The notes: a model not told the origin generated them from the sequence alone. A stretch of DNA of 32,000 nucleotides from Nitrosopumilus sp. K4 (GCF_018128925.1 NZ_CP067007.1:598164-630163), one strand, 5' to 3'. Positions 1 through 14,333 are shown, counted from the first letter of the stretch. Numbers and translations: made by a program.

Positions 1-2000
1 AACAAAGAGGAATTACAATTTATCAGGCAAACGTTACCTTGCTCTTTTCTCAAAAAGGCAAGGAATACGTAATTAACATGATTGATACTCCTGGACACGT
101 AGACTTTAGTGGAAGGGTAATTCGAAGCCTCAGGGCAATTGACGGTGCAGTAGTTGTATGTGATGCAGTTGAAGGCATCATGACTCAGACAGAAACTGTG
201 ACTAGAATGGCACTTGAAGAACGAGTAAGGCCTGTCTTGTTTATCAACAAAGTAGACAGACTCATCAAAGAGCTTCGACTGACACCTGAAAAAATGCAAC
301 AGCAACTAGCCGAAGTTGTATCTAACTTTAACCAATTAGTTGAGACCTATGCTGAACCAGAATACAAAGACAAATGGAAGGTATCCATCCAAGACGCAAG
401 CGTTACATTTGGTTCTGCAAAAGACAGATGGGCAATCAACGTTGATATCATGAAAGAGAGAGGAATCACATTCAAAGATGTTATTGATGCTTATACCAAT
501 GAAAAAGTTAACGACCTTGTAGAAAAGGCACCTCTTGCAGATGCCGTTTTGGGCATGGTTGTAAAACACCATCCAGCTCCACAAGATGCAGTCAAGTACA
601 GAATTCCTCAAATCTGGAAGGGTGACTTGGAGTCTGATGTCGGAAAAGCTCTTCTTGCATGTAAAGACGATGGTCCAACAATCATGATGATTGTAAACAT
701 GGTTTTAGATCCTGCAGCTGGTCCAGTTGCAATTGGTAGGTTGTTCTCTGGAACAATCAAAGACGGTCAGACAATTAACATAATTGATTCTAAACGAGAA
801 GGAAGAGTTCAATCTGTGAACTTTTTCATGGGAAACCAAAGAGAACAAGTCGGAGAACTTGGAGCAGGTAACATCCCTGCACTTTTGGGACTGACTGAAG
901 CAAGAGCAGGTAACACACTATCTTCTGTAAAAGACATTCCGATGTTTGAGGGAGTAAAGTATGTCTCAGAACCTGTTGTGCAAATTGCAATTGAACCAAA
1001 ACATCCTAAAGATTTACCTAAACTAGTTGAGGTGCTCAAACAACTAACAATTGAAGACCCAAACCTTATTGTAAAAATTGATGAGGAAAGCGGAGAAACA
1101 ATTGTAGCTGGAATGGGTGTATTGCACCTTGATGTTGCAACGCACCGTATTCAGGATGCTAAAGTTGAGATTGTAACCTCAGAGCCCTTGATTAACTATA
1201 GAGAAACTGTCAAGGGTGGATGTGAACCAATCATGTCAAAATCTCCAAACAGACACAACAAGATTTTCATGAAAGTAGAGCCATTGGAGCCAAAAATCGC
1301 TAACATGCTTAGAACTGGTGAAATCAGTGATATGAAAGACAAGAAAGTAGTTTCAGACTTGCTAAAAGAGTCTGGCTGGGATACTGATACAATTAAGAGA
1401 GTCATGAGATTTGATTCCCGTGGAAATGTTTTGATTAACGGTACAAAAGGTGTTCAGTTTGTTCAAGAATCTACTGATTCAATCAACTCTGGATTTGATG
1501 AAGTGATGAGAGAAGGTCCATTGTGTAAAGAACAGGTGAGGGACTGTAAATTCACATTCACTCACTTTGTACCTCACGAGGATACTGCCCACAGAGGTTT
1601 GTCCCAACTAGGTCCTGCATCACGTAGAGCATGTACTGGTGCAATGCTTACTGCTGGCTGTACTGTGTTGGAGCCAACACTGGCAATTGAAGTTCGTGTT
1701 CCTACTGACTTGGTAGGAAACGTTGCAACTGTTCTTTCTGGTAAACGTGGTAAAGTTTTGGACATGTCTCAAAAAGGCGCATCCAGTATTGTCACTGGCG
1801 AGATTCCAGCTTCTGAAACATTTACGCTATCTGAGGAGATGAGAGGCCAAACTGCAGGTCGTGCAACGTGGAATACATCATTTAAGGCATGGACTGAAGT
1901 TCCAAAATCCATGTTGGCAACTGCTGTTGCTGACATTAGAAAGAGAAAAGGACTGGCACCAGAACCACCAGGTGCAAACGAATTCATCGATAAAGAGTAA
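1..2000 (+). CDS. fusA: Archaeal translation elongation factor 2 (aEF-2), 5'-truncated by the window edge
   Basis: The reading frame is open from base 3 (QRGITIYQANVTL precedes the track's TTG at 39). GTPase motifs DTPGHVDF and NKVDR are present, plus the diphthamide-loop region HEDTAHRG. Stop TAA at 1998-2000. Confidence 0.95.
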   Translation, partial: QRGITIYQANVTLLFSQKGKEYVINMIDTPGHVDFSGRVIRSLRAIDGAVVVCDAVEGIMTQTETVTRMALEERVRPVLFINKVDRLIKELRLTPEKMQQQLAEVVSNFNQLVETYAEPEYKDKWKVSIQDASVTFGSAKDRWAINVDIMKERGITFKDVIDAYTNEKVNDLVEKAPLADAVLGMVVKHHPAPQDAVKYRIPQIWKGDLESDVGKALLACKDDGPTIMMIVNMVLDPAAGPVAIGRLFSGTIKDGQTINIIDSKREGRVQSVNFFMGNQREQVGELGAGNIPALLGLTEARAGNTLSSVKDIPMFEGVKYVSEPVVQIAIEPKHPKDLPKLVEVLKQLTIEDPNLIVKIDEESGETIVAGMGVLHLDVATHRIQDAKVEIVTSEPLINYRETVKGGCEPIMSKSPNRHNKIFMKVEPLEPKIANMLRTGEISDMKDKKVVSDLLKESGWDTDTIKRVMRFDSRGNVLINGTKGVQFVQESTDSINSGFDEVMREGPLCKEQVRDCKFTFTHFVPHEDTAHRGLSQLGPASRRACTGAMLTAGCTVLEPTLAIEVRVPTDLVGNVATVLSGKRGKVLDMSQKGASSIVTGEIPASETFTLSEEMRGQTAGRATWNTSFKAWTEVPKSMLATAVADIRKRKGLAPEPPGANEFIDKE

Positions 2001-2107
2001 AAAGGCAAAGCCCCCCTTTTGTGCGTGAAAAGTTTGTTATGACCTAAACTATAGCGTAGGATTGTTTGTAGGAGAATTGTTATAACGAAAGTATGAATTT
2101 GTGAAAT

Positions 2108-2551
2108 ATGGAAGTAATAGAAATTGTTGGAGTTGTTTCTGCACTTGGAGTGATAGGTGCATTGGTATTTAATGGAATAACAAACTTACGTGATAAAAAA
2201 AGTAGACACTATGAGATATTCCAAGATTTGATGAAAGAATACACTCAGATTCAAGAAGTCATTCCAGATATTGTTAAGATTGCATCATTAGATCGGGCAG
2301 AATTAAAAAAACAACCTGAGACTTTACAAAACAAGGTTCGAATGTATCGATGGAAATTTGTACAATTCCATGAAAAAATTGCCCATCTTGCATTAACTGG
2401 AATCATCCCAAAAGAAATTACACAATTTTTTAATGAAACTTTTCCTGATGCTATAAAACATATTGAATTGAGTCCAAATCCAGAATACATTAAAGAACTT
2501 TCACCCAATTTGTTCAATTGGTGCGAACAAGAAAAAATTAAGACTAAATGA
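2108..2551 (+). CDS. Hypothetical membrane-anchored protein, translationally coupled to cas1
   Basis: 147-aa ORF with an N-terminal hydrophobic helix (IVGVVSALGVIGALVF) followed by a helical soluble part. Its TGA stop overlaps the cas1 ATG (ATGA at 2548-2551). A TATA-like TTATAA lies at 2080-2085. Confidence 0.6.
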   Translation: MEVIEIVGVVSALGVIGALVFNGITNLRDKKSRHYEIFQDLMKEYTQIQEVIPDIVKIASLDRAELKKQPETLQNKVRMYRWKFVQFHEKIAHLALTGIIPKEITQFFNETFPDAIKHIELSPNPEYIKELSPNLFNWCEQEKIKTK

Positions 2552-3543
2552 CATTAAAGGGTCAAAAAAATCATTACAATGTAAAATTCCTCAAGGGTTA
2601 TGGTCATTCAATCTCTATCAAAAATTCCAAAATCATCCTAAAAGATAATCATGACCCGTTTTCTGAGCCTGAAATTGAATCATGGCCTGTTAAAAATATG
2701 CCATATGAGAAAATAGTGATGCAGGGTAAGGGATACATCTCCACTGAAGCATTATCGCAATTATCTGAGAATAATCGAAATGTCATTCTACTTGACAATC
2801 AAGGAAAACCAATAACATTCTGTAATGGCATGATGGATTCACTTACTGCAACAAAATACAGAATGGCACAATATGATACATTCAGAGATGAATCAAAGTG
2901 TCAGTATTTGCGACAGCAAATCATACAAGCCAAGAAAGAGTCTCAACTAAAACTACTCAAGTTGATTGGTAGTGACATAACTGAATTGCCTGATACAGAA
3001 CATCTTTCAGCCAAAGTCTATTGGTCGGAATTTTCTAAATTTATTCCTGAAAAATATGGATTTTCATCTAGAAATCAATCCCAAATTAGAAACTCCAAAA
3101 ACAATGCAACTGATATCATCAACGCCTTGCTAAACTATGGATATTCTGTCTTGGCAGGGGAGATTTCAAAATTTGTTTGCGGGTTTGGTCTTGACCCATA
3201 TTTTGGATTCATGCATCGTTCGCATACTGGATTTCAGCCGTTGGTGTATGATTTGATAGAGCCGTTTAGGTGGCTGGTCGATTATACCGTCTATGAGATT
3301 GCAAGGGATTCAAATTCCAGAAAACAAATCAAACTCAAAGAATATAGTTATACAAAAGACGGAACTGTTGTTTTGGAATATTCTTTGATCAAAAGATTTT
3401 TGGAGGTGCTAGAGAGACAGTTTGCAAAGGAAAGAAAGTATGATTTCAGGCACGGAAAGAAGACAAAAGATGGTTTGAAGTCAGTTCAAGAAATTACGGT
3501 TGCTAAGATTTTGGTTCAGGATCTTGTTGAGTTTTGTCTCTAG
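2548..3543 (+). CDS. cas1: Cas1-family integrase (solo Cas1 / casposase-like)
   Basis: 331 aa. Cas1 signature blocks seen by eye: NALLNYGYSVL, GLDPYFGFMH (catalytic His), LVYDLIEPFRWLVD (acidic catalytic residues), and TEHLSAKVYW (candidate catalytic Glu). The N-terminal domain has KIVMQGKGYISTEALSQLSENNRNVILLD. No cas2, cas4 or CRISPR array is adjacent. Confidence 0.85.
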   Translation: MTLKGQKNHYNVKFLKGYGHSISIKNSKIILKDNHDPFSEPEIESWPVKNMPYEKIVMQGKGYISTEALSQLSENNRNVILLDNQGKPITFCNGMMDSLTATKYRMAQYDTFRDESKCQYLRQQIIQAKKESQLKLLKLIGSDITELPDTEHLSAKVYWSEFSKFIPEKYGFSSRNQSQIRNSKNNATDIINALLNYGYSVLAGEISKFVCGFGLDPYFGFMHRSHTGFQPLVYDLIEPFRWLVDYTVYEIARDSNSRKQIKLKEYSYTKDGTVVLEYSLIKRFLEVLERQFAKERKYDFRHGKKTKDGLKSVQEITVAKILVQDLVEFCL

Positions 3544-4255
3544 TATCGTTCGATTTCTCTTTTTTTGATTGCTGTTCTTCCTTTCTTTCTCTATCTAATT
3601 TTTGAATACTTGTTTCACCACTTCCAAATTTCTCTCTAAATTCCATGGCATCTTCATATAGTTTTTGAAAATACAATTTGAAAATTGTTGCATCGCGTTC
3701 TTTAGAAAGTTGATTTTTTAATTCCTCTAACACTATCCAACTATTTACAACAGCTCCTGCATATGCCGTAAAGAAAACATCTTTTGGAATATACCCGCCA
3801 AATCTAGCAGGCTTTTTAGTTTTTAAATCTAATTTTCTATAAATCAAAATTCCAATTTCATCCCAATCATTCATTATTTTTTCTCCTTTTTCTCGAAACT
3901 CTTCTTCATGTATTATTTTCTCTGGAATGTAATTACTCCATCGTTCTATAACATATTTTCTATATGATCTATTGTCTTTAGAATTTAGCAATTCGTGAAG
4001 ATGCAACAATGCATTAAATTCTAGATTCTTTCTTTGATAGTGCCAAGTAATTCCTCCTACGGTAATAGCAATAATCGCTGATGCAATTCCAACAATTGTT
4101 TCAGAAGCAATTGGTGGCTTTGATTTCTCAACTACAGGTTCCTCAACTACAGGTTCCTCAACTACAGGTTCCTCAACTACAGGTTCCTCAACTACAGGTT
4201 CTGCAAAGACGGGAACAATAAACAATGATAAAAAAATTATCCAAAAGAATTTCAC
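3503..4255 (-). CDS. Hypothetical type-I membrane protein with (EPVVE)x5 repeat
   Basis: 250 aa. Signal-like N-terminus MKFFWIIFLSLFIVPVFA, five EPVVE repeats, TM helix IVGIASAIIAITVGGITW, then a helical domain and a K/E-rich tail. Its 3' end overlaps the cas1 3' end by 41 nt (convergent). Confidence 0.6.
   Translation of the reverse strand: MKFFWIIFLSLFIVPVFAEPVVEEPVVEEPVVEEPVVEEPVVEKSKPPIASETIVGIASAIIAITVGGITWHYQRKNLEFNALLHLHELLNSKDNRSYRKYVIERWSNYIPEKIIHEEEFREKGEKIMNDWDEIGILIYRKLDLKTKKPARFGGYIPKDVFFTAYAGAVVNSWIVLEELKNQLSKERDATIFKLYFQKLYEDAMEFREKFGSGETSIQKLDRERKEEQQSKKEKSNDTRDKTQQDPEPKS
4127..4201. repeat. Perfect tandem repeat, 5 x 15 bp (CTCAACTACAGGTTC), coding for EPVVE on the minus strand
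   Basis: Five nucleotide-identical units read directly at 4127-4141, 4142-4156, 4157-4171, 4172-4186 and 4187-4201. Confidence 0.95.
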
Positions 4256-4442
4256 AAGATCACTATGAAATGTATGAACTTAAGCATATTGAAATTAAAA
4301 ATAAAAAATGTGGAATTAAATATCCACTTAGTTGTTGTCTCTGTCTCCGCCAGAGGGTTTTCTATGGTTTTTACTTGGCCATCCTCCGCCTTTGCTTTTT
4401 CCTATAACGATTCACCTCCATGTTTTTCACACACAATATGCA

Positions 4443-5012
4443 ATGAAGAAGTACTTATATGATAATCATAGAATACCTAGAATAATGGTAGATTATAGAG
4501 CTGATTTATTACTAAATATCCAAAAAAATATACGGAAATCATATACAAGATTATATGAGCAATATCCAATTTATGGGATTTTCAATAAATCCACACAAAA
4601 GAAATTGCTACAAAATATAGAACATGACCAAGAAAAGTATGGTTCACAATCTTGGAGTAATCTCAGAAAATCAGTTCACAGAAGCTTAATTGACATCTCA
4701 TTGTTTTGCAATATTGCAAGCTCTGATCAATTAGAAAAAACAATGTTTGGTTATGCAGAAGTTCCAGAATTAAACTCAACAAATTCCTCAAACAAACATC
4801 TTTTACCATATATCATATCTTCGATATTGAATCCAAAACAATATCAAAAAACAGACATTTGGAAAATGGATTTATCAAATAGAATTTTGTCTGAAGTTTT
4901 CGAGTTTTATAGAGAATCAAACATTGTAAAATCCAAAGCATACCTTAGATTACTGGAAGAAGTCGAAGATTTCCTAAAGTTAGAATTAGAGAGTCGTTAT
5001 AGAAACAGATAA
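4443..5012 (+). CDS. Hypothetical protein (island cargo)
   Basis: The track ORF 4332-5012 begins with TTG and a Pro/Leu-rich unlikely extension. The first ATG at 4443 (MKKYLYDNHRIPR...) gives a 189-aa protein. No recognisable motif. Confidence 0.5.
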   Translation: MKKYLYDNHRIPRIMVDYRADLLLNIQKNIRKSYTRLYEQYPIYGIFNKSTQKKLLQNIEHDQEKYGSQSWSNLRKSVHRSLIDISLFCNIASSDQLEKTMFGYAEVPELNSTNSSNKHLLPYIISSILNPKQYQKTDIWKMDLSNRILSEVFEFYRESNIVKSKAYLRLLEEVEDFLKLELESRYRNR

Positions 5013-5021
5013 TTAGATTTT

Positions 5022-5732
5022 TTATTTTGTTACATACTTTTCTAATTTCTTGACAATTTTTTTTACGTCATTTTCTGATAGGATGTCTTTTTTCTTTTCA
5101 ATCCAAGGCAATATAGTAACCAAGTCTTTTACTGCAACAAACCGATATGCAGGATCATACTTCATGTTGCCCTGTATAGTTAACAGTACTGCTGAAACAT
5201 TTGGATTTTCCATTCCAAACCACTCTTTGAGTGAAATCCACATAATACGTCCTGCTCTGTTTACTTGTTCATGTGGTTCTAGTCCTCCATTCGCTCTATT
5301 TTTGAAGATATAAGTATCTGACCAATTTTTGACTTCAATTACTTGAATGCCTTTCTGAGATACTATAACAAAGTCCATCTGTGCAGATTTGAGACTGCGT
5401 TTACCATTGTATGTAACATGATGAGGTAGTTCTAGATTAATCCCGCATAAAATATTGTACTGATCATCTAGTCTAGATAGTGTGTTCAGAACACGAATCT
5501 CACCTTTTGTGCCTGAATGAAGTGGTGTGTTTATGTGTTTTTCAATTTTATTTATTTGTCGTTTTTTGCGCCATCTTGAGAATTTGTTTCTGATTCCCTT
5601 GTCTTTTATTGAGTCAAATTGGTCTTGAAACTCTTGTTGTACTCTATCAATATCCTTAATTGATTTGACTTCATTTGGTAATTTGTCAAGGAATCTCTTT
5701 TCAGTGTCTGCACGACCGTAAACTATGGCCAA
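5022..5732 (-). CDS. NERD-domain (PD-(D/E)xK-like) nuclease-related protein
   Basis: 236 aa. The pattern GTKGEIRVLNTLSRL...YNILCGINLELP...AQMDFVIVSQKGIQVIEVKNWSD matches the NERD layout (GxxGE ... D-f-v-v ... ExK). Confidence 0.6.
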   Translation of the reverse strand: MAIVYGRADTEKRFLDKLPNEVKSIKDIDRVQQEFQDQFDSIKDKGIRNKFSRWRKKRQINKIEKHINTPLHSGTKGEIRVLNTLSRLDDQYNILCGINLELPHHVTYNGKRSLKSAQMDFVIVSQKGIQVIEVKNWSDTYIFKNRANGGLEPHEQVNRAGRIMWISLKEWFGMENPNVSAVLLTIQGNMKYDPAYRFVAVKDLVTILPWIEKKKDILSENDVKKIVKKLEKYVTK

Positions 5733-5828
5733 TGATAATAATTTTTGAGAGCGAAAATAAAGGATGTGGTAGTTTCATTTGAACAAAATATCACAAAATG
5801 CTTATTTTCATATAAAATTAAGAATAAC

Positions 5829-6044
5829 ATGGACATTCCACGTAGGCCTGAAACACATGTGCCCATAGATGATTCATGGAAGTTAGGAGATGATGGAATT
5901 GATGAAGACGGTCATTATGATGAGACTCGCGACCGAACCTTTCTAAAACGACTAAAACGAGAATATCCTGAAGCTTACAAAGAACTAGTGAAGATTCTAA
6001 GAAAAAACAACCCAGATTACGAATCTGATGAAAAACAAATGTAG
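5829..6044 (+). CDS. Hypothetical small acidic protein
   Basis: The track ORF 5745-6044 starts at TTG. The first ATG at 5829 (MDIPRRPETHV...) gives 71 aa. It is followed by a strong hairpin plus T-run. Confidence 0.45.
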   Translation: MDIPRRPETHVPIDDSWKLGDDGIDEDGHYDETRDRTFLKRLKREYPEAYKELVKILRKNNPDYESDEKQM

Positions 6045-6050
6045 TATTTT

Positions 6051-6097
6051 GCTACCTTTTGTTACACATACCATTTTGTAACAAAATGTAGCTTTTT
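6051..6097. terminator. Near-perfect 16-bp-stem hairpin followed by T5, between convergent genes
   Basis: GCTACCTTTTGTTACA (6051-6066) pairs with TGTAACAAAATGTAGC (6077-6092) at 15 of 16 positions. The loop is 10 nt and TTTTT follows at 6093-6097. Confidence 0.55.
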
Positions 6098-6181
6098 CTC
6101 AGGCACAAAAAAGCTTCAGATATCAAATGGAATTTTTATGATCTTACAAATTTGAGAAATATACTCTGCAAAATTCTAAAA

Positions 6182-6436
6182 TCACTCTTCAATAACACAA
6201 TAAGCTAAGTTAGATGTGTGATTCTTGTCCTTGGCAATGCTTTCCATCATGAGGTTTTTCAGATATTTGAAATGCTCCTCTTGACATGCTTTTGAGCAAA
6301 ACTTTTCAGATAAATCCTGTAATTCTATACCGCATCTGATGCATACTTGGGCCATTACTCTCTCAAAATAGCCTTCCCTGAAAAAGTAAAAGATCTTTGT
6401 ATGAATATTTTGATCTGAAGATGTGAATTTTTTCAA
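6182..6436 (-). CDS. Small FCS/TRASH-like zinc-finger protein
   Basis: 84-aa ORF; an alternative start at Met28 (6355) gives 57 aa. Cys motif CIRCG-x11-FCSKAC (C-x2-C ... FCS-x2-C). Confidence 0.5.
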   Translation of the reverse strand: MKKFTSSDQNIHTKIFYFFREGYFERVMAQVCIRCGIELQDLSEKFCSKACQEEHFKYLKNLMMESIAKDKNHTSNLAYCVIEE

Positions 6437-6551
6437 ACCTTGAAAATTGCCTGAATTCTGGTTCTCAGGTTTACTTTTCTAATCATGTTTGCCAACAATA
6501 TTGCCTTTGAATTTTTAATAATCAACTCAGTAACACAAGGTCGACCTAAAA

Positions 6552-7121
6552 ATGATGAGTCAACTTGAGCCTGGACTAGAACCAATTGAGCGTGAAAGAA
6601 TTCTCCTTGAGAGTATCAAAGAAAACCCTGATTTGCACCACAATGCGTTGCTGAAGACCATCGTACCGAAATACATGGCCAAAAACACATTTGAGAAAAC
6701 TCGTGACTCTTTGCTGGAAAAAGGCGTAATTGCTGTACTGATGAAAGGCAATATGAAATTCTATGTTCCTGTATCAAACTATGAGGCAAAAGCGCAACAG
6801 CATTTTGAGAAAATCACCCATGATTCCTTTCATGACCTAAAAATCTCCGTTAAGCGATTGGTTACTGACTATTCTCACAAGGATGTGGATGAAAAAATTA
6901 ATCTTGCAAATTCAATACTTGGGCATTTACTGCAAACTGATACTGGATTCACCCTTTTGGATTCTATTAAAAACCCAAAAAAAACATTGTACATAGATGA
7001 ACACTTGGAGATCCAACATTTGATTTTTGAAGTAATTGAAATTATCCACAAAGACAAAGATTTTGAAAGCATCTATCCTACGATTCTTAGCTGCATGGGC
7101 AAATTCCTTCCCAAAGCCTAG
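6552..7121 (+). CDS. Putative winged-helix DNA-binding protein
   Basis: 189 aa. The N-terminal ~75 aa (ILLESIKENPDLHHNALLKTIVP...TRDSLLEKGVIAVLMKGNMKFYV) look like a wHTH, and the C-terminus is helical. Architecture resembles the ORF at 15927-16535. Confidence 0.45.
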   Translation: MMSQLEPGLEPIERERILLESIKENPDLHHNALLKTIVPKYMAKNTFEKTRDSLLEKGVIAVLMKGNMKFYVPVSNYEAKAQQHFEKITHDSFHDLKISVKRLVTDYSHKDVDEKINLANSILGHLLQTDTGFTLLDSIKNPKKTLYIDEHLEIQHLIFEVIEIIHKDKDFESIYPTILSCMGKFLPKA

Positions 7122-7173
7122 TATACTTTTCTGATCTAGTTTTTTATTCAAGTGAATTTTACAAGCTGTTGAA

Positions 7174-7401
7174 ATGGGTCTGTTATACACAAAATTTTAT
7201 TTGGATTTTGACCCTGAGGACTGGAAACAGGTTTCAACAAATCCAATAATATTTGAAGCCTTAGATGACAATGTCATTTTGGATATTGATGACACCTCTC
7301 AGAATAATTACAAATTAAAATTCAAAAAAGGTGGAAAGTTACAAATGTTCAGAGTGGTTGGAAAATTCCGACTGACTTGGAACGATGATGATGTTCTGTA
7401 A
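7174..7401 (+). CDS. Hypothetical protein
   Basis: 75-aa ORF with an ATG start, non-overlapping, in the island. No motif recognised. Confidence 0.35.
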   Translation: MGLLYTKFYLDFDPEDWKQVSTNPIIFEALDDNVILDIDDTSQNNYKLKFKKGGKLQMFRVVGKFRLTWNDDDVL

Positions 7402-7442
7402 TTCCTGAAAAAATTATAACGGGTTGTTGTTTTCAAGATATC

Positions 7443-7673
7443 ATGTCCTTGACTGAGGAAATACAACAAATTCGATCAGATTTTGAAAACACAGAATCTG
7501 AAAAAATTCTAAAAATTGTTGATGAAATACGAAGTCATTTCAAAAGTGATTTGACAAAAGATTATCTTCAAGGCAAGATAAAATCAATCTCTGAAGTGAC
7601 AGACGAGGCTGAAAAAAAGAAACTTTGCAAGACATTGTTACCCTATTTTGACTGGTATATTCAGGGCCTCTAA
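7443..7673 (+). CDS. Hypothetical helical protein
   Basis: 76-aa ORF with an ATG start. Its stop overlaps the convergent ORF 7670-8092 by 4 nt. Confidence 0.35.
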   Translation: MSLTEEIQQIRSDFENTESEKILKIVDEIRSHFKSDLTKDYLQGKIKSISEVTDEAEKKKLCKTLLPYFDWYIQGL

Positions 7674-8092
7674 TCTGAAAACTGGTTGATTCTTTCCTGA
7701 GCGTTTTTTATTATTGGTATGTCTTTTCTTGCAGTATCTAGTTGCACCAACTGTACAAAATATTCGTGCCCCGTATCCTGTGCTTTTTTGATATCTGATT
7801 CATAACACATTAGTGCTTTTTGAAAAAATGGAATGTCTTCAATTAGCTGATTAATTGGACTGTTATCGGATAAACAATCTTTGATTTTTTGTATTGCCTC
7901 GTCGATTTTTGGAACTGTTTTCATTGCTTCTTGATTCAAAACGGATGCAAACATTGCTGCAGAATCTTTCAGTTCGGGACTTTTTCCAATAGTTCTTAGT
8001 CTTTTTTTATAATGGTTAAGTGATTTTAGGATGATTTCATACCCTCCTTCATCCTTGAAAAAAATACCTCCTACCCAAGTTTTATCTGACAT
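7670..8092 (-). CDS. Hypothetical protein
   Basis: 140-aa ORF with an ATG start and no competing ORF. No motif recognised. Confidence 0.5.
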   Translation of the reverse strand: MSDKTWVGGIFFKDEGGYEIILKSLNHYKKRLRTIGKSPELKDSAAMFASVLNQEAMKTVPKIDEAIQKIKDCLSDNSPINQLIEDIPFFQKALMCYESDIKKAQDTGHEYFVQLVQLDTARKDIPIIKNAQERINQFSD

Positions 8093-8189
8093 TTTTCTTA
8101 TTCTGTTTTTACGTTATAATAATTTCATGTTTTTGGCACTAGTATAATTTCTACTTTCTTCTAATATACTATTGTTGTATAATGAGATT

Positions 8190-8381
8190 ATGAACATGAC
8201 AAATGAATTTGGAATGAAACACTTATTGGCTCAGTGTCCAAATTGCCAAAGTGATTCTCTTTATTGTGGAAAAATACCTACCTCTATTCGAGATATGGCA
8301 AACAAAGAAGTGTTGTTCTGCAAAAAATGCAAGTTTGTCGTACCTGTAGATGAATTCAAAAAAATCCTTTCTTGTAGGTGA
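8190..8381 (+). CDS. Small zinc-ribbon protein
   Basis: CPNCQ ... CKKCKF (two CxxC pairs). The track start at 8172 is TTG; the first ATG is at 8190. Confidence 0.45.
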   Translation: MNMTNEFGMKHLLAQCPNCQSDSLYCGKIPTSIRDMANKEVLFCKKCKFVVPVDEFKKILSCR

Positions 8382-8385
8382 TTCC

Positions 8386-8622
8386 TTATCTTAGGTCTGC
8401 ATCAAAACTCTCTTGTATTGCTGGCTGATTTCTGTTGATCAAATATAGCAGTATTCCTGCCATGAGTACGCCGATTCCCATTAGACCGATAAATGTGCCT
8501 GCATGTTTAATTGATCTAATGGATGAATCCAAATCCGGTCCACTTTGAATCGAATAAAACAGGATCAATCCTAAAACTACCATGACGCTGCCTGAAAGAA
8601 TTATTGCAGTGCCACTTTTCAT
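8386..8622 (-). CDS. Small membrane protein (2 predicted TM helices)
   Basis: 78 aa with two hydrophobic stretches (AIILSGSVMVVLGLILFY and FIGLMGIGVLMAGILLYL). Confidence 0.5.
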   Translation of the reverse strand: MKSGTAIILSGSVMVVLGLILFYSIQSGPDLDSSIRSIKHAGTFIGLMGIGVLMAGILLYLINRNQPAIQESFDADLR

Positions 8623-8835
8623 GATTTGATGGCTAAATACTGATTAATAAATTCCAATTTCTCAGTTAATCTGATTAAATTTATGATAAAGTAAAAATTT
8701 TTCAAAAGTTTTTTTAAATTTGCAATAATCTGTGTCTGGTTTTTGCACTTTTTGTGTATGTTTCTAAAACATAATTTAATTTGAAACCCAATGATTCCCT
8801 CTCAAAAATCAAAGACTAGATTAAACAATAAGCAG

Positions 8836-9480
8836 TTATTCTTGAATCTTCGTTCCCACTGAAACATACAAAAATCCTCCCCAACCTTCACGATAAGAAG
8901 TCTTTTCAAAATACCTCTCAATAGATTTCCATGCAGTTCCTTTGAGATATTCCTCATCTGCATCAAATGGTTTTGTAAAAAATACAATTAACGGTGCAAA
9001 AATCTTTGCAGGCCCTTGTGACATTTTAAAATCCATAATAACAAATTTTTTGTTAGGCTTTAGTGCATCATATCCTTGTTTGATTATTTTGTCATATTGG
9101 GAAGAATATTGCAGTGCGCCTGTTGTATAAATTCCATCTAGTTCTTGTGGAAATCGATATTCGGCAAAATCGCTTTCAACCAATTCGACATTCTTCCATC
9201 CGTTTTCATCTCGTCGTTTTCTTGCCTGATCAAGCATTTTATCAGTAATGTCAACCCCAATCAGTTTTCCCTCGGTTCCAATTTTGTCTAAAACCCGAGA
9301 AAAATTCAAACCAGTACCGCATCCAAGCTCAACTACAGTATCGCCTTTTGACAGATCTAGTGAGTTAACTGCAATGTCTCGATATTTTCCTATTTTAATT
9401 CCCAACAAGCGATAGAGTTTTACTGCAAAGTCGTAGTTGTCGGCATATTTTCTATATGCCTCAACTACTCGATTAGACAT
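8836..9480 (-). CDS. Class I SAM-dependent methyltransferase
   Basis: 214 aa. Motif I VVELGCGTGLN, then the acidic loop IGVDITDKML. Confidence 0.8.
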   Translation of the reverse strand: MSNRVVEAYRKYADNYDFAVKLYRLLGIKIGKYRDIAVNSLDLSKGDTVVELGCGTGLNFSRVLDKIGTEGKLIGVDITDKMLDQARKRRDENGWKNVELVESDFAEYRFPQELDGIYTTGALQYSSQYDKIIKQGYDALKPNKKFVIMDFKMSQGPAKIFAPLIVFFTKPFDADEEYLKGTAWKSIERYFEKTSYREGWGGFLYVSVGTKIQE

Positions 9481-9717
9481 AATTCCGTTACGTGAACTTT
9501 ATTCAAAAATATGAAAGATAGTTTTCAACACTGATTTTTACTTTGAAATAGATTTGTTCTGCATGAATCACATCAAAATATGGTTAAAATGTGAAAAGTA
9601 CCATGTACTAACTGTTGAATTGAGCCTGATTGAATCAATTTTTTAGTACATTTTTGGAAAATTAACTAAAGTTGTTTTTTTATACTTAGGTAAACTTATT
9701 GCAAATAAATAATCACG

Positions 9718-11277
9718 ATGATGAACATGGCACAATTAACACTTTCAGAAACAATTCAAAAAGTAGAGGCGATGATAGATTCTGGACAAGGTGATTCAGG
9801 ACGCCTATATCATATTTTGGAATTCCTAAAACACAACAAGACCCTTTATCATTCAGATCAAATGTATCTTGAAAAAAAATTACAAGCAGGAATTGTCTTA
9901 AAAGAAGAAACACAATATGTGCCAAAAGATATTCTTGAAAAAATCCAATTTTTAATAGATTCTGGACAAGGCGATGCCGGAAGACTGCAACATATCTATG
10001 ACATGTTGGCAAACAACAAGACCCTTTATCATTCAGATCAAAAATATCTGGAAAGCAAATTAGATTCTCTAGGTAATCTACCCATGCCCTCTACTGAAAA
10101 CATTCCATCTGAAAGTATGCAAACAAGCACAAATGCAAAACAAGAATTCCTTGAAGAGTCAAAACTACATGAAAAACCTACCTCTGAAAAACCTACACCT
10201 GCAACACCGCAAAGAGAAGCCAAAATTGAACATACTGAAAAATTAAGAGGAACTATGCCCAAGGGGTGGACTCCTCCTGAAAATTCTGCAGATTTGCATG
10301 GGATCTATGAAGAGATAAAAACTGAAGAACAAAAACTTGAAAGCCAGAAAAAAATCTATGATGAAATAAGTTTACAACGCTCAAAGCTATCTCAACTAAT
10401 TTTGAACAGGCAGGATTATGAAAAACAAGTTAAACTTGAGCAAGCTAAACTTGAATCTCAAATAAAAGAAGAACGAGAAAAAATTGCCAATCAAACTCAT
10501 CTTTCTGAAGAAATTTTAATTCAGAAAAAAGAATTAGATAATATCAAATCTGAAAGAGATAAGGTTCTGAAAAAAATTCATTCTGAAAAAACAAAACTTG
10601 CCAAAGACCTAGAACAGCAAAAAAGACAATTAGTTAACGCGCAGCTTGAACAAGAAGAAATTGAAAAACAGATAGCACAGGAACAAACACTTCTTGCAAA
10701 AATGACAACTGAGCAGAAAAATAGACTCTTAAAACAGGCACAAATAGCGCACGAAATTAAACAAAAACAAGATGAACTAGAAAAAGCCAAAAAAGAATAT
10801 GAGGAAATCGTTTCTGCTGTTTCTCAAGAAAAAGAAAAACTAGCCGAAGCTGAAAAATTAAAAAAATCCATCAAATCCCAAGAGGCTGATCTGATTAGTA
10901 CTAAAGAAGAACGTCTTAAACTAATTACCCTGATTGCCAAAGAAAAAGAGAACATTTCTAAAAAAACCCAAGAAGAAAAAGAAAAACTTCAATCTCAAAA
11001 CAAATTACGTAAACAGCTTGAAAAAGAAGAAAAAGAATATGAAAAACTAAAACAAAAAAGAAAGAAAATTGAAGAACAAATTAAACTAAAAAACAAAAAG
11101 CTAAAAGAAAAACAAGCTAAACTAAAAAAAGAGATATCAGAAAAAGACACTGCACTAAAGTCACTCTCTTCAAAGAAAACAACAAATGCTAAAACAATTA
11201 AGTCTAAAACAAAAGCTAAAGCAACAAATGCTAAAACAAAATCTAAGGCGACAAAAAATAAAGATGAGGCCTCTTAG
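9718..11277 (+). CDS. Coiled-coil protein with duplicated N-terminal motif and basic tail
   Basis: 519 aa. Two copies of IDSGQGD(S/A)GRLxHI...NKTLYHSDQxYLExKL, about 300 aa of K/E/Q-rich heptad-like sequence, and a Lys/Thr/Ala-rich basic C-terminus. Confidence 0.75.
   Translation: MMNMAQLTLSETIQKVEAMIDSGQGDSGRLYHILEFLKHNKTLYHSDQMYLEKKLQAGIVLKEETQYVPKDILEKIQFLIDSGQGDAGRLQHIYDMLANNKTLYHSDQKYLESKLDSLGNLPMPSTENIPSESMQTSTNAKQEFLEESKLHEKPTSEKPTPATPQREAKIEHTEKLRGTMPKGWTPPENSADLHGIYEEIKTEEQKLESQKKIYDEISLQRSKLSQLILNRQDYEKQVKLEQAKLESQIKEEREKIANQTHLSEEILIQKKELDNIKSERDKVLKKIHSEKTKLAKDLEQQKRQLVNAQLEQEEIEKQIAQEQTLLAKMTTEQKNRLLKQAQIAHEIKQKQDELEKAKKEYEEIVSAVSQEKEKLAEAEKLKKSIKSQEADLISTKEERLKLITLIAKEKENISKKTQEEKEKLQSQNKLRKQLEKEEKEYEKLKQKRKKIEEQIKLKNKKLKEKQAKLKKEISEKDTALKSLSSKKTTNAKTIKSKTKAKATNAKTKSKATKNKDEAS
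9775..10060 (+). repeat. Intragenic duplication (about 105 bp unit, 180 bp period)
   Basis: ATAGATTCTGGACAAGG occurs at 9775 and 9955. A 30-nt exact match ACAACAAGACCCTTTATCATTCAGATCAAA occurs at 9833-9862 and 10013-10042. Confidence 0.9.
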
Positions 11278-11894
11278 TCGCTTATCTTGATTGTTATTTC
11301 CTCTCCGTTTCCTATTGGACTGGTAATTGTATTTACTTTTTGATGGTTTTTCAAATAGTTTGAAAACTTTTTCATCTCCTCTCGATATTTTTCTGGATAC
11401 AGCATGTTGTCTGTAACGATAACTCCTTGGTTTTTGATCATGGGAAACGCCAGTTCAAAATACTTGACTACATTTTCTTTGTCTGCATCAATGAACACAA
11501 AATCAAAGAATTTTTGAAATTCCTGCTTTTTAGAATATTCTTCTAAAATCTCAATTGCATTTCCTTGGTTGATTTTTATGATCTCTGAAACTCCTGCTTT
11601 TTTGAAATTCTCTTCTGCTCTTTTGATCTTTTTTGGATTTTTTTCAATTGTGAATATTTGCCCCTTGTTTTCTTTGATTGCATCTGCAAACCATATTGTG
11701 GAATATCCTGTCGACATTCCGATTTCTAGGACATTTTGGGCATTTTTTATTCGTAAAATCATGTTTAGCAGCTCGCCAGTTTCCTTTGTTATGGCCAGCA
11801 TTCTCTCTTCTGGCAGAACATCAACCTTCCTTATTTTTTCAAGTATGGAGCGTTCCTCTAATTCCTCTAGAACTTTAACAATTGTGTCGTCCAA
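11274..11894 (-). CDS. O-methyltransferase family 3 (caffeoyl-CoA OMT-like), SAM-dependent
   Basis: 206 aa. VLEIGMSTGYSTIWFA (motif I) and FDFVFIDADKENV are typical of family 3 OMTs. The stop overlaps the upstream convergent gene by 4 nt. Confidence 0.85.
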   Translation of the reverse strand: MDDTIVKVLEELEERSILEKIRKVDVLPEERMLAITKETGELLNMILRIKNAQNVLEIGMSTGYSTIWFADAIKENKGQIFTIEKNPKKIKRAEENFKKAGVSEIIKINQGNAIEILEEYSKKQEFQKFFDFVFIDADKENVVKYFELAFPMIKNQGVIVTDNMLYPEKYREEMKKFSNYLKNHQKVNTITSPIGNGEEITIKISD

Positions 11895-11942
11895 TGTTTA
11901 TCCCTTGTTTTGAAATAAATTAATCCTACCTAATTAAGAAAT

Positions 11943-14333
11943 ATGAGATTTTTTCTTTTTTTGTTGATTTTTGGAATCGTATTATTTATGCCTCAAAACG
12001 TATTTGCTTTAGAACTAGATGCAGTTGCGGAAAAAGAAGTGTTTGGGCCAAATGACTGGCTCAAAGTTTTTGTTAAACTTGACAAGTATTCTGGCGGTAA
12101 GATTAATTGGAATGTCACAAAACCTGACGGTGCCATGTTAAATGGCTTTTTTGAAAACATTCAGGCCTCCAAAGTAACACACACTATAAGCAGAAATGCA
12201 TTTGACAACCAGTTTGGAACCTGGACCTTTGACTATTCTTACAAAAATGCTACAAAACAAGTCAATGTTGAAGTTGACCCCTTGACTGTTACAGTGACTG
12301 CTGATAAAACAACTTATTTGCCTGGTGATGTTGCAACCATTCGATTCTCTACAAATTATTATAATCCAAATGCAGCAAATGCACAATTTCTTTCCATGCA
12401 TATTGTCGATGAGAATGGAAGGCCTGCTAAACTGATTGATGATATCGAACTCAAGGTCTCTCAACCAGTTATACTTCAACAATTTTCTGTTGCTGACTTG
12501 GTTAAATACAATCCATTTGGAAAGTATCGTGCTGTTGTAAACTACTATAATCTTCAAGCTGATGTTCCATTTGAAGTAACAGATTACAGTTCTAAAACTT
12601 CGATATTTTTAGGAACAGACAAGTCGCTTTATGATCCTGGAAACTCAGTTGAACTCAACATTGTAATTCCAAAATTGACTGATAGTTCTGGAACCCTTTC
12701 TGTTACCTTCCCCTCTGGAAAAATAATGACCAAAGTAATCCCGATTGATTCTTCTTTGACTAGATTCTTTCTAGATGGCGTCACTAATTCTGAGATCGGT
12801 ACATTCAAGTATGAATTTGAATATGCGGGAAGTTATTTTTCTGGAACCTTTGATGTTTTGTCCGAATCCCTTGATGAGCCTGTTTCAAAAGAACTTGAAA
12901 TTGAATTGCTCTTAGACAAATCCCAGTATAGGCCCGGGGAAACAATCCAAGCCAAAGTATCCACAAGTAAATTAGTTGAAAAACAGATTACGTATTGGTT
13001 TGAGGATTCTTTGGGAAATAAAAGTGGCCAGTTTTCCTTTTCTAACCCTTCCGTAGGCACATTTACAATCTCCCATATCTTGTCAATTAATTCTCAGGAA
13101 GGGCCTTGGAAAATGTATGTAAAATATGGCGATGTCCAAACATTTGCAGTTTTCTTTATCTCTGGCACACCTGTATCTCCCTCTGAAAAAATTTCACCAG
13201 AACATCAACTTGGACCTGAGTTATTACTGACTATTGATAGTCGCATAACTGATTTTTCAAAAGTAATTGATTTGTCTATCTCTCACGGTGATGAATTATT
13301 TGTATTAGATTCTGGTAATTCTAAAATCAAATCATTTGACAATGTTGGAAATCTAAAAAAAATCTGGGGTAGTGTAGGGACTGGCGATGGACAATTACGT
13401 AACCCTTCTGCTATTTTTGCCGAAGATAGTTTTATTCATGTAGCTGATACGGGTAATTCTAGAATTGTAACCTTTGACCATGATGGGAATTTTATCCGAA
13501 ACTGGGGGAATTCTGGAATTGCACACCAATCCTTAAAAAATCCAAGTGACATAACCCTTGATTCCTCGGGAAACTTTTTTGTTTCTGATAATAATCAAAA
13601 TAAAATTTTAGAATTTAATTCAAATGGTACCTATGTGAAAACCATTGAATCTATTCTGACTGCATCCGCAAAATTCTCCTCAATCCAATCAATATCTTCT
13701 GATGGAAGCAATGATCTGTATTTACTGTCCTCAGATGATAGCAGAATTTTACAATACAAAAATACAGGCGTTTTCATTAAATCCTTTGCAAGTGAAGGAC
13801 AAAATGACAAACAACTACAGAATCCTTCGTCGTTAACACTTGACAAAAACGACTACCTCTATGTGTCTGATACGGGAAACTACAGAATAATCGTATTTGA
13901 TGCAAATGGTAATTTTATTGCAAAATGGGGTAGTTTTGGAAATGGCCCTGGTCAATTTGCCCGTATTGCAGGACTAGATGTTGATTCTAAAGGAAATGTG
14001 TGGGTGGTTGACTCTCAGATTAACAGGATTCAAAAATTTGCCTCGATTTTTGGTAAAAGCTCAATTGAAATTCCTGATTGGATACGCAATAACGCAAAAT
14101 GGTGGAATGAAAACAAGATATCTGATGAAGAATTTGCATCCGGAATCGAATTTATGATTCGAGAAAAGATAATTGTGATTCCTGAATTAGAACATGCTCC
14201 TACTTTACAAGAAACAAAAATTCCAAAATGGATAAAAAATTCTGCAAATTGGTGGGCTGATGGATTAGTATCCGATCAAGAATTTGCAAACTCCATTGAA
14301 TATCTAGTAAATTCTGGAATTATTCGAGTATGA
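11943..14333 (+). CDS. Secreted NHL-repeat beta-propeller protein with Ig-like N-terminal region
   Basis: 796 aa. Signal peptide MRFFLFLLIFGIVLFMPQNVFA. At least five NHL-type repeats (e.g. GQLRNPSAIFAEDSFIHVADTGNSRIVTFDHDGNF and GQFARIAGLDVDSKGNVWVVDSQINRIQKF). Two C-terminal copies of IPxWIxNxAxWW...SDxEFAxxIEYL..GII. Confidence 0.85.
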   Translation: MRFFLFLLIFGIVLFMPQNVFALELDAVAEKEVFGPNDWLKVFVKLDKYSGGKINWNVTKPDGAMLNGFFENIQASKVTHTISRNAFDNQFGTWTFDYSYKNATKQVNVEVDPLTVTVTADKTTYLPGDVATIRFSTNYYNPNAANAQFLSMHIVDENGRPAKLIDDIELKVSQPVILQQFSVADLVKYNPFGKYRAVVNYYNLQADVPFEVTDYSSKTSIFLGTDKSLYDPGNSVELNIVIPKLTDSSGTLSVTFPSGKIMTKVIPIDSSLTRFFLDGVTNSEIGTFKYEFEYAGSYFSGTFDVLSESLDEPVSKELEIELLLDKSQYRPGETIQAKVSTSKLVEKQITYWFEDSLGNKSGQFSFSNPSVGTFTISHILSINSQEGPWKMYVKYGDVQTFAVFFISGTPVSPSEKISPEHQLGPELLLTIDSRITDFSKVIDLSISHGDELFVLDSGNSKIKSFDNVGNLKKIWGSVGTGDGQLRNPSAIFAEDSFIHVADTGNSRIVTFDHDGNFIRNWGNSGIAHQSLKNPSDITLDSSGNFFVSDNNQNKILEFNSNGTYVKTIESILTASAKFSSIQSISSDGSNDLYLLSSDDSRILQYKNTGVFIKSFASEGQNDKQLQNPSSLTLDKNDYLYVSDTGNYRIIVFDANGNFIAKWGSFGNGPGQFARIAGLDVDSKGNVWVVDSQINRIQKFASIFGKSSIEIPDWIRNNAKWWNENKISDEEFASGIEFMIREKIIVIPELEHAPTLQETKIPKWIKNSANWWADGLVSDQEFANSIEYLVNSGIIRV

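Follow-up and report, generated by a model that had tools for sequence, protein, structure and literature searches.

The window analysed here, a 32-kb stretch of the Nitrosopumilus sp. K4 genome, opens with the 3' part of the aEF-2 gene (positions 39-2000, + strand; TIGR00490, E 6e-222), the host target gene, whose 3' end is the usual, though not universal, target of family-1 casposons and which the K4 insertion fits. Within its last codons lies the left copy of the casposase target, or target-site duplication (TSD), ATCGATAAAGAGT (1986-1998, + strand), identical at 12 of 13 positions to ATTGATAAAGAGT, the 13-bp TSD that experiments defined for the N. koreensis casposon (PMC8464041), and keeping the positions reported as critical in the same work (A1, A11, T13 and the ATAA at 5-8). 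As read from the sequence, the aEF-2 stop codon TAA (1998-2000) consists of the final target base and the first two bases of the casposon repeat, so that a left terminal inverted repeat (TIR) of the K4 type, AAAAAGGCAAAGCCCCCCT... (1999-2068, + strand), starts at the second base of the stop codon and is followed by a subterminal region up to 2107. The first 19 nt of this repeat are identical to both termini of a complete metagenomic casposon (L090), and 1999-2107 matches the left end of that element at 87 of 113 positions. Position 1986-1998 is the only target copy with at most one mismatch on the + strand of the window; the 32 kb hold no second TSD copy, and matches with up to three mismatches elsewhere stay at chance level (29 seen, 34 expected). 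No inverted partner of the left end longer than 13 nt and no right TIR occur anywhere in the 32 kb, nor is there a run of five or more G in bases 1-12000.

The first gene behind the repeat corresponds to casposon 'gene 1' and encodes a 147-aa protein (2108-2551, + strand) with 29 homologous cluster representatives, some of them at the equivalent position between aEF-2 or the TIR and cas1 in other aEF-2-inserted elements (L161 and L159/L160). The protein has an all-helical fold and a hydrophobic N-terminal segment that is probably a membrane anchor; its AF2 model (pLDDT 84) matched no PDB fold at E<=0.001. Family-1 casposons typically carry a gene for a small membrane protein in this place, after the left TIR and ahead of cas1 (AR1, AR2, NF5 and L090). 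The stop of the 147-aa gene overlaps the start of cas1 (2548-3543, + strand), which encodes an intact family-1 casposase, a Cas1 without C-terminal HTH (PF01867, E 1e-43; TIGR00287, 135 bits against a cut-off of 71.7). At 331 aa it ends where its relatives turn variable; identity is 84% to the AR1 casposase (P0004) and 85% to P0002. The family-1 casposase of Ca. N. koreensis AR1 has been characterised biochemically and in vitro integrates mini-casposons and even non-TIR DNA (PMC8464041); residues D110, R113, K117, K184, Y197 and Y234 are kept in K4, whose casposase may still be catalytically competent. Among solved structures 6opm is the nearest; PMC8464041 cites it as the casposase of M. mazei.

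A 250-aa cargo gene (3503-4255, - strand) converges on cas1 and shares some sequence with the 3' end of that gene; a convergent gene in such a position, overlapping or directly abutting, is also present in AR1, AR2 and NF5. Its product is homologous to that of a 197-aa gene of NitAR2-C1 (blastp E 6e-9). It is hydrophobic at the N-terminus and again in a second stretch and has five PVVEE repeats (the gene carries a 15-nt tandem repeat at 4127-4201), which suggests a secreted or membrane protein. In divergent-promoter position follows a conserved 21-nt casposon intergenic motif, TGTATGAACTTAAGCATATTG (4271-4291, + strand), the core of which is common to AR1 (2 copies), AR2, NF5, L018 (2 copies), L086, L088, L093, L012, L073 and L157. 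The next cargo gene (4443-5012, + strand, in an ORF open from 4332) carries the annotation of a 175-aa hypothetical protein, NsoK4_03505, and has no assigned function; its AF2 model is unusable (pLDDT 42). Homologues of it are 66-70% identical (P0242-P0244), one lies about 320 nt downstream of this 21-nt motif in L157, and a 28%-identical one belongs to the L097 casposon, with cas1 on one side of it and the pre-PolB genes on the other. An apparently intact NERD-domain nuclease gene of 236 aa (5022-5732, - strand; PF08378, E 7e-12) shares 48% identity along its whole length with the NERD gene of the TIR-bounded casposon L090, and a NERD nuclease has been reported in casposon NitNF5-C1 (PMC6563490). 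Two small K4-specific ORFs occupy 5745-6436: one of 99 aa (5745-6044, + strand), for which no homologue was found among 158 loci, and a zinc-ribbon-like one of 84 aa (6182-6436, - strand), with Pfam matches below threshold and only weak matches (E about 1e-4) in the aEF-2-adjacent islands of L029 and L072. The DNA carrying these small ORFs (5745-6511) may be casposon cargo or other inserted DNA.

The right junction (6505-6512) shows neither TIR nor TSD, and native homology to the intergenic region between aEF-2 and o189 resumes there directly. In blastn, window positions 6512-6600 align to positions 10643-10731 of L007, about 43 nt beyond the aEF-2 stop of this empty site, and more than 30 other loci align from window position 6512 or 6538 onward. 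Behind the junction lies a conserved host block (6552-8622) with ORFs of 189, 75, 76, 140, 69 and 78 aa, homologues of which follow aEF-2 in the same order in 34-45 of 80 species-level loci (15 for the 69-aa gene) and which is also found outside the AR2 and NF5 casposons. The o189 block stands only 89-320 nt behind aEF-2 in at least 10 genomes, with no TIR sequence at these empty sites; L007, L045 and L055, where the host block begins just 89-129 nt past the aEF-2 match, are therefore empty sites. The stretch from aEF-2 to the host block often contains an island, and the content of these islands varies.

Much of what the first-pass annotation had seen was borne out, namely aEF-2 ahead of the island, a full-length Cas1 in its first operon, and a casposase at the reported aEF-2 target; its extent for the island, about 6.7 kb up to 8622, was an overestimate by about 2.2 kb. 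Because 6512-8622 is the host block and native homology resumes at 6512, the K4-specific DNA comprises only about 1999-6511. These 4.5 kb are casposon-derived: the gene ahead of cas1, three cargo genes, NERD among them, and the 21-nt motif are found again in other family-1 casposons. Nor do housekeeping genes resume at 8836, as had been proposed: the 214-aa methyltransferase gene at 8836-9480 is itself K4-specific, the two host genes flanking it being about 330 nt apart in L007 and no counterpart lying between them in other loci. The description as an island of ORFans is only partly true, as homologues of four of its ORFs occur in other casposons or in casposon-like fragments.

We found no PolB in the window: tblastn of the AR1 casposon PolB over the full 32 kb gave a best E of 1.3, and no ORF in 2001-9700 exceeds 331 aa, both in agreement with the initial reading of the locus. 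The three or four conserved small genes directly upstream of PolB that are a feature of family-1 casposons are likewise absent; AR1 o77, o63, o86 and o88, with homologues in at least 10 other casposon loci, had no window match at E<0.8 (tblastn). Among the neighbouring ORFs no cas2 or any other Cas family besides Cas1 was found (Pfam, NCBIfam, PADLOC), the only tandem repeats in the 32 kb are coding ones, with no CRISPR-like array, as had been noted before, and there were no Rfam matches. The K4 element thus has the casposase-clade Cas1 and the aEF-2 insertion of a complete autonomous family-1 casposon and lacks, within the window, its PolB, pre-PolB genes, right TIR and right TSD. Of MITE-like non-autonomous elements it shows neither the two ends nor the multiple copies, having one end and no second copy of its gene set among 158 related loci.

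In an NJ tree, the K4 Cas1 is sister to that of L018, which has PolB, and is nested among PolB-bearing casposons; of its close relatives in the surrounding clade, all whose sequence extends 3.5 kb or more past cas1 have PolB. The aEF-2 site often holds decayed casposons: casposon footprints occur in 9 of 64 related loci (genomes) and an intact element in one of the 64. The decay takes several forms, with truncated Cas1 in L025, L026 and L037, PolB fragments in L012, L029, L031, L050 and L066, a solo TIR in L011 and a TIR without either gene in L073, and in L116 there is another intact Cas1 of the K4 casposase family with no PolB within 10 kb. With three truncated Cas1 against five PolB fragments, Cas1 is not preferentially retained. 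For family 2, decayed casposons and solo TIRs have already been described (PMC4046053; PMC4779613).

We therefore consider it very probable that this locus represents a family-1 casposon's left arm, an immobilised remnant left after deletion of the right arm. This is the only one of three earlier proposals, a deletion remnant, that the evidence supports. Since an intact Cas1 was kept while the polymerase and the right end were lost, K4 has a stranded remnant rather than a novel type of element; it is a known kind of casposon with an intact Cas1 integrase. The suggestion that PolB fragments would mark a merely decayed known casposon is too narrow, given that K4 is decayed and no such fragments are left. 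In a first step, the casposase would have catalysed integration at the 13-bp target in the last aEF-2 codons, the insertion site and near-identical target being those used by the AR1 casposase in vitro. A later deletion would then have taken the right arm with the conserved small genes, the protein-primed PolB and any right-hand cargo, together with the right TIR, the second copy of the target and some 40 nt of native spacer. The part that survives (about 1999-6511) consists of the left repeat, the intact casposase gene and the membrane-protein gene coupled to it, the intergenic motif and cargo of variable kind. Having a single end and lacking a polymerase, the element can no longer be excised, copied or re-inserted as a unit, and is therefore immobilised. 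That a complete element once stood at the K4 site and was lost by deletion is parsimonious, because the K4 Cas1 nests among those of PolB-bearing casposons. No intact progenitor was found at this site in a closely related genome, and we therefore infer the deletion rather than observe it.

The NERD gene lies on the opposite strand relative to cas1 in K4 as compared with L090, so that one simple deletion of an L090-like element cannot give the K4 order; the K4 order would require either a differently arranged cargo or recombination between inverted copies in tandem. This leads us to consider a variant of the deletion scenario, not exclusive of it, in which two oppositely oriented tandem casposons were joined by a deletion fusing the cas1 arm of one to the NERD arm of the other. 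Besides the NERD inversion, it draws on the tandem and head-to-head casposons present at the aEF-2 site (L087/L092 and L018), on the reported NF5 tandem pair (PMC6563490) and on a K4-type TIR remnant directly behind the AR1 casposon. However, no internal TIR or TSD remnant separates the K4 arms, and cargo order varies widely among casposons anyway, so we regard this variant as rather unlikely.

We give little credence to domestication, in which Cas1, perhaps with the 147-aa protein, would have been kept by selection after immobilisation because it serves the host, for instance by capturing DNA site-specifically at aEF-2. The intact, translationally coupled cas1 and upstream partner, the intact target beside the TIR, the variable islands often found between aEF-2 and the host block, and the likewise PolB-less L116 with its intact Cas1 are all in keeping with it. 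Pairwise dN/dS of Cas1 is not elevated either (0.03-0.11, like other casposases, median 0.084), but dS is saturated (>1.6), which makes this selection test weak and uninformative; together with the intactness of all retained genes, these values are equally compatible with a recent deletion and with retention by selection. Against domestication, cas1 decays elsewhere as readily as PolB, the K4 arrangement occurs in no other genome, and TSD-like repeats inside the K4 island are not above chance (29 matches against 34 expected). The idea of a Cas1 recruited together with a membrane partner, as first proposed, loses its main argument because a pre-cas1 membrane-protein gene is standard in family-1 casposons. 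It is still less probable that the stranded casposase is active and has been retained by inserting foreign or cellular DNA beside its single repeat at aEF-2. If this were true, K4 would be a present-day counterpart of the 'immobilised casposon with solo TIR' that has been hypothesised as an intermediate toward CRISPR adaptation, and ongoing insertion would help explain the hypervariable Nitrosopumilus islands between aEF-2 and the host block.

A non-autonomous, PolB-less casposon that is still mobile, using its own casposase and a polymerase supplied in trans by another casposon or the host, would be consistent with the intact Cas1, left TIR and target, and with the in vitro acceptance of mini-casposons and non-TIR DNA by the AR1 enzyme (PMC8464041). 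Such mobilisation in trans, another of the initial proposals, needs two ends; with the right TIR and second TSD absent from the 32 kb it is therefore unsupported, and the right junction lies directly in native intergenic DNA. The gene set has no second copy in 158 related loci, and a non-exhaustive search shows no K4 protein among the best 120 homologues of the casposon PolB, thus giving no sign of a helper. Given the missing right end, this explanation is close to refuted, and neither a trans-mobilised element nor a domesticated Cas1 is supported. Lastly, a CRISPR-associated Cas1 with cas2 and an array outside the window, as the database annotation 'CRISPR-associated endonuclease Cas1' and the passing of the generic Cas1 model might imply, is effectively refuted by the 84% identity to a biochemically studied casposase, by the fact that no subtype-specific CRISPR Cas1 model reached its cut-off, by the nearest structure being cited as a casposase (PMC8464041), and by the casposon TIR/TSD context with no cas2 or array within 30 kb.

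The stranded left arm of K4 can be set beside three known systems. The family-2 remnants of Methanosarcina mazei, Methanococcoides burtonii and Methanolobus psychrophilus are similarly immobilised at their canonical target after loss of ends or core genes (PMC4779613, PMC4046053), and there, as at the aEF-2 site, remnants outnumber intact elements; they differ from K4 in family, host and target and consist of solo TIRs or fragmented genes. Among described cases we found no remnant that combines an intact casposase with complete loss of PolB. NitAR1-C1, the family-1 casposon of Ca. Nitrosopumilus koreensis AR1 (Krupovic et al. 2014, PMC4046053), shares with K4 a Nitrosopumilus host, insertion at the 3' end of aEF-2 with cas1 on the aEF-2 side, the 13-bp target (12/13), Cas1 (84%), the small membrane-protein gene upstream of cas1, the convergent gene over the cas1 3' end and the 21-nt intergenic motif. 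K4 is without its conserved small genes, 594-aa protein-primed PolB, right TIR and right TSD, and the two are unlike in cargo genes and in TIR type (AAAAAGGCAAAGCCCCCC in K4, AAAAATAGAATCCCCCC in NitAR1-C1). The complete K4-type family-1 casposon L090, 11.2 kb on metagenome contig Ga0209992_10004246, has a 72-nt TIR (90% complementary), a 13-bp TSD at both ends, Cas1, PolB, the pre-PolB genes and NERD. Unlike K4 it is complete, stands in the opposite orientation to aEF-2 and carries NERD and cas1 on one strand, but it shares with K4 the aEF-2 insertion, the identical 19-nt TIR terminus, Cas1 (79%) and NERD (48%).

In Nitrosopumilus sp. K4 (K4), whose genome is apparently a single contig of 1.65 Mb (1,645,909 bp), the 331-aa ORF at 2548-3543 lies downstream of the aEF-2 gene (39-2000; TIGR00490, E 6e-222), and its product is the same, residue for residue, as the protein annotated there as Cas1. 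The protein is matched by Pfam Cas_Cas1 (E 1e-43) and scores 135 bits with the general Cas1 model of NCBIfam, for which the cut-off is 71.7; none of the CRISPR-subtype-specific NCBIfam Cas1 models reaches its cut-off. It shares 84% identity with P0004, the Cas1 of Ca. N. koreensis AR1 and a family-1 casposase with an integration chemistry established in vitro (PMC8464041), and 84-85% with the Cas1s of other Nitrosopumilaceae casposons. All invariant positions in an alignment of ten sequences are kept, the conserved residues including D110, R113, K117, K184, Y197 and Y234, which are important in the casposase (PMC8464041), and the C-terminus falls exactly where those of its relatives turn variable. 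The nearest solved structure is 6opm, cited as the M. mazei casposase in the same paper. No Cas2 or other Cas family was found among the neighbouring ORFs, and neither a CRISPR-like array nor any Rfam family in the 32-kb window. K4 Cas1 is a casposase and not a CRISPR adaptation enzyme. The first-pass annotation had reported a Cas1 unaccompanied by family-B DNA polymerase (PolB), Cas2 or array in the window, and this part of its observation holds, given the Pfam and NCBIfam matches, the negative scans and a longest ORF of 331 aa in 2001-9700; the limits it set for the island do not.

For the AR1 casposon NitAR1-C1, the published target-site duplication (TSD) is ATTGATAAAGAGT, with a T-rich leader in front of it (PMC8464041). 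The K4 target copy is ATCGATAAAGAGT (1986-1998), which keeps A1, A11 and T13 together with the ATAA 'ruler'; directly 3' of it lies AAAAAGGCAAAGCCCCCCT, a 19-mer that supplies the last two bases of the aEF-2 stop codon with its own first two. The same 19 nt form both termini of L090, a complete metagenomic casposon of 11.2 kb (Ga0209992_10004246) with terminal inverted repeats (TIRs) of 72 nt at 90% complementarity and a 13-bp TSD, ATCGACAAAGAAT, present at both ends; between 1999-2107 and the L090 left end, 87/113 positions are identical. Unoccupied sites have an ordinary AT-rich spacer past the stop codon, free of TIR-like sequence. Because the target and an L090-identical terminus are present in K4, and this terminus is absent from empty sites, the left boundary is a genuine casposon end at the canonical target. 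The TIR type of the K4 casposon occurs in metagenomes too. Two TIR sequence types, AAAAATAGAA-CCCCC and AAAAAGG[CG]AAAGCCCCCC, lie directly past the aEF-2 stop codon in 13/77 loci (L005-L084).

A K4-type TIR with subterminal sequence (AAAAAGGCAGTCCCCCC...) also lies directly past the right TSD of NitAR1-C1 in AR1 (locus L002, 17561-17670), where it is identical to window 1999-2107 at 80/124 positions and is not followed by any casposon genes. NitAR1-C1 seems to have inserted later at the site of this older solo TIR, which could explain the initial reading of the AR1 TSD as 22 bp. A mini-element ending in minus-strand GGGCTTTGCCTTTTT, 1.5 kb past this solo TIR, was considered and rejected, as the match is only 15 nt, has GGG in place of GGGGGG and is not followed by a TSD. 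L090 itself contains an internal 39-nt partial TIR copy (10020-10058), 92% complementary to the left TIR and placed directly after the NERD gene, with a 376-aa gene and the true right TIR following; this suggests a history of nested or tandem insertion.

The right boundary was sought by mapping the K4 proteins onto the aEF-2 loci of 80 species-level genomes. The ORFs at 6552-8622 (189, 75, 76, 140, 69 and 78 aa) have counterparts behind aEF-2 in other genomes, with their order unchanged, and so have the 519-aa and 206-aa genes after the 78-aa gene; homologues of the 189-, 75-, 76-, 140- and 78-aa genes occur in 34-45 of the 80 loci, and of the 69-aa gene in 15. This host block begins 89-129 nt past the aEF-2 match in L007, L045 and L055, and 237-314 nt past it in L042, L047, L048, L053, L056, L058 and L059, all of which are empty sites. 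At the nucleotide level, K4 is homologous to them again from 6512, a point that in L007 falls some 43 nt beyond the aEF-2 stop codon. In N. sediminis (AR2) and N. adriaticus (NF5), too, the host block is not part of the casposons. Because the genes at 6552-8622 are conserved in relatives and homology resumes at 6512, the K4-specific DNA comprises about 1999-6511, or 4.5 kb. The island had been drawn to 8697, a limit that takes in some 2.1 kb of ancestral host genes, and housekeeping genes had been thought to resume at 8836, where the methyltransferase gene (8836-9480) is itself K4-specific. This minus-strand gene encodes a 214-aa SAM-dependent, Methyltransf_31/UbiE-like enzyme. Its neighbours, the host genes of 78 aa and 519 aa, are separated by about 330 nt in L007, and other Nitrosopumilus loci have no counterpart of it in this interval; it represents a second strain-specific insertion, independent of the first. 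Across species (L005-L084) aEF-2 and the host block are separated by 44 nt at the least and about 9 kb at the most, and several multi-kb islands with no recognisable casposon gene or TIR occur, for example, in L016, L023, L034, L040, L061 and L063.

The first conserved host gene past aEF-2, the 189-aa gene (o189, 6552-7121), shows weak winged-helix/Penicillinase_R similarity. Just upstream of it, empty sites carry the palindrome GACCTA-N7-TAGGT, of which K4 has only the right half (6520-6551). Paralogues of o189 are found inside casposons, at 13174-13788 in NitAR1-C1 (L002; 46% identical across the 61 N-terminal residues) and at 6599-7066 in L109, which suggests that genes have been exchanged between the target neighbourhood and the elements. 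Deletion through recombination between host o189 and a casposon-borne paralogue was rejected, since the junction (6512) precedes o189 and all known paralogues are encoded on the other strand.

The canonical gene order, read from AR1, AR2, NF5, L018, L087, L090, L092, L095, L107, L109 and L117, is left TIR, small membrane-protein gene, cas1, convergent gene and variable genes, followed by three or four conserved small genes, a protein-primed PolB of about 594 aa (PF03175), cargo and right TIR. K4 keeps the first part of this order, and all its retained element genes are intact. The 147-aa gene (2108-2551), with a hydrophobic N-terminal segment, overlaps the cas1 start with its stop; its family is small, with 29 cluster representatives, homologues lie between aEF-2/TIR and cas1 in L159, L160 and L161, and its AF2 model (pLDDT 84) matched no fold in the PDB at E<=0.001. 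The convergent 250-aa gene (3503-4255) is homologous to a NitAR2-C1 gene (E 6e-9). Five perfect 15-nt tandem repeats (4127-4201) encode PVVEE x5 near the N-terminus of its product, just after the hydrophobic segment, and the perfect identity of the copies suggests a recent expansion. The cargo gene at 4443-5012 has homologues 66-70% identical, one of them downstream of the same 21-nt motif in L157, and a distant homologue inside the L097 casposon; its AF2 model (175/189 aa) has a pLDDT of 42, too low for use. The NERD nuclease gene (5022-5732) is 48% identical to that of TIR-bounded L090, and a NERD nuclease has been reported for NitNF5-C1 (PMC6563490). The two small ORFs at 5745-6436 have no convincing relatives, and PHROGs and PADLOC scans of the island ORFs gave only weak NERD-related matches.

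The 21-nt motif TGTATGAACTTAAGCATATTG (4271-4291; core A[AC]TTAAGCATATTG, with the palindrome CTTAAG) is conserved among otherwise divergent family-1 casposons and casposon remnants. It is common to K4, AR1, AR2, NF5 and further loci, with positions at 11678 and 12020 in L002, 12062 in L004, 12606 in L156, 16866 and 17265 in L018, 3320 in L086, 2131 in L088, 1829 in L093, 19882 in L012, 13410 in L073 and 712 in L157. It is intergenic in the loci with gene calls (K4, AR1, AR2 and NF5), lies about 0.4-2.3 kb past cas1 in loci that also hold that gene, and could be an operator or promoter of the element. We found no published description of it.

The right arm is missing. Neither PolB nor the conserved small genes preceding it left a remnant in the window (tblastn, best E 1.3 for PolB), and pattern matching, repeat finding and blastn-short with the 125-nt left end detected no right TIR in the 32 kb, where no inverted match to these 125 nt exceeds 13 nt; the first 12 kb contain no run of five or more G. 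There is no second TSD, matches with <=3 mismatches numbering 29 vs 34 expected by chance. Neighbour joining of 46 Cas1 sequences placed K4 as the sister of the PolB-carrying L018; PolB is present in every member of the surrounding clade with at least 3.5 kb beyond cas1, and all 'no PolB' labels in it come from contigs ending too early. Because close relatives with enough sequence all carry PolB, its absence from K4 is most parsimoniously a loss and not a primary absence. A complete L090-like element would have inserted at aEF-2 and then lost its right arm; we infer this deletion, having found no near-identical genome with an intact progenitor. The NERD gene stands on opposite strands relative to cas1 in K4 and L090, so a single deletion of an L090-like element does not yield the K4 order, and another cargo layout or a fusion of two tandem inverted copies must be assumed; tandem inverted casposon pairs exist in L087/L092, L018 and NF5. 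Pairwise dN/dS (NG86) of K4 cas1 is 0.03-0.11, against a median of 0.084 among other casposases, with dS saturated (>1.6), so these values do not separate recent deletion from retention by selection.

Among 64 species-level loci with >=3 kb downstream of aEF-2, one holds an intact casposon and nine hold footprints: a TIR terminus with truncated cas1 (L025, L037), PolB fragments (L012, L029, L031, L050, L066), a bare TIR (L011), and TIR plus motif with neither core gene (L073). The aEF-2 3' end in Nitrosopumilus is a hot spot at which footprints outnumber intact elements by about 9:1 in this set. In a metagenome scan, many contigs carried just the first 20-200 codons of cas1. An intact Cas1 of the same family, 67% identical, lies at 10001-11071 of the metagenome contig L116 (CXWL01000936.1), with a 19-aa insertion common to P0120, no PolB in the 10 kb to its left or right and no adjacent aEF-2; it is possibly a second PolB-less case in a different context.

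On these sequence grounds, the K4 locus is best understood as a right-truncated, immobilised family-1 casposon. Among the readings offered by the first-pass annotation, the deletion remnant is the one that the left TIR and target, the empty sites, the missing right arm and the PolB-bearing relatives support. Recruitment of Cas1 to a new function with its membrane partner seems very improbable to us: casposase, target and one repeat are all intact, and the AR1 enzyme integrates non-TIR DNA in vitro (PMC8464041), but casposons ordinarily carry a membrane-protein gene, which removes the main argument for recruitment, and decay at the aEF-2 site has shortened cas1 and PolB about equally often. A non-autonomous element mobilised in trans would need two ends and is contradicted by the lack of the right one and of a second copy of the gene set in 158 related loci, and no K4 protein appears among the best 120 of 1025 L090 PolB homologues as a helper.

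Taken alone, the truncated K4 casposon is another decaying mobile element, and we found nothing relevant in the literature on this strain. If a culture exists, the locus offers a natural test of family-1 casposase activity after immobilisation, which is relevant to the casposon-to-CRISPR scenario, and the 21-nt motif and the two TIR types may help in annotating casposon remnants. For family 2, decayed casposons and solo TIRs have already been described (PMC4046053, PMC4779613); K4 represents a decay stage of a family-1 casposon, with integrase, one repeat and target intact and the polymerase gone.
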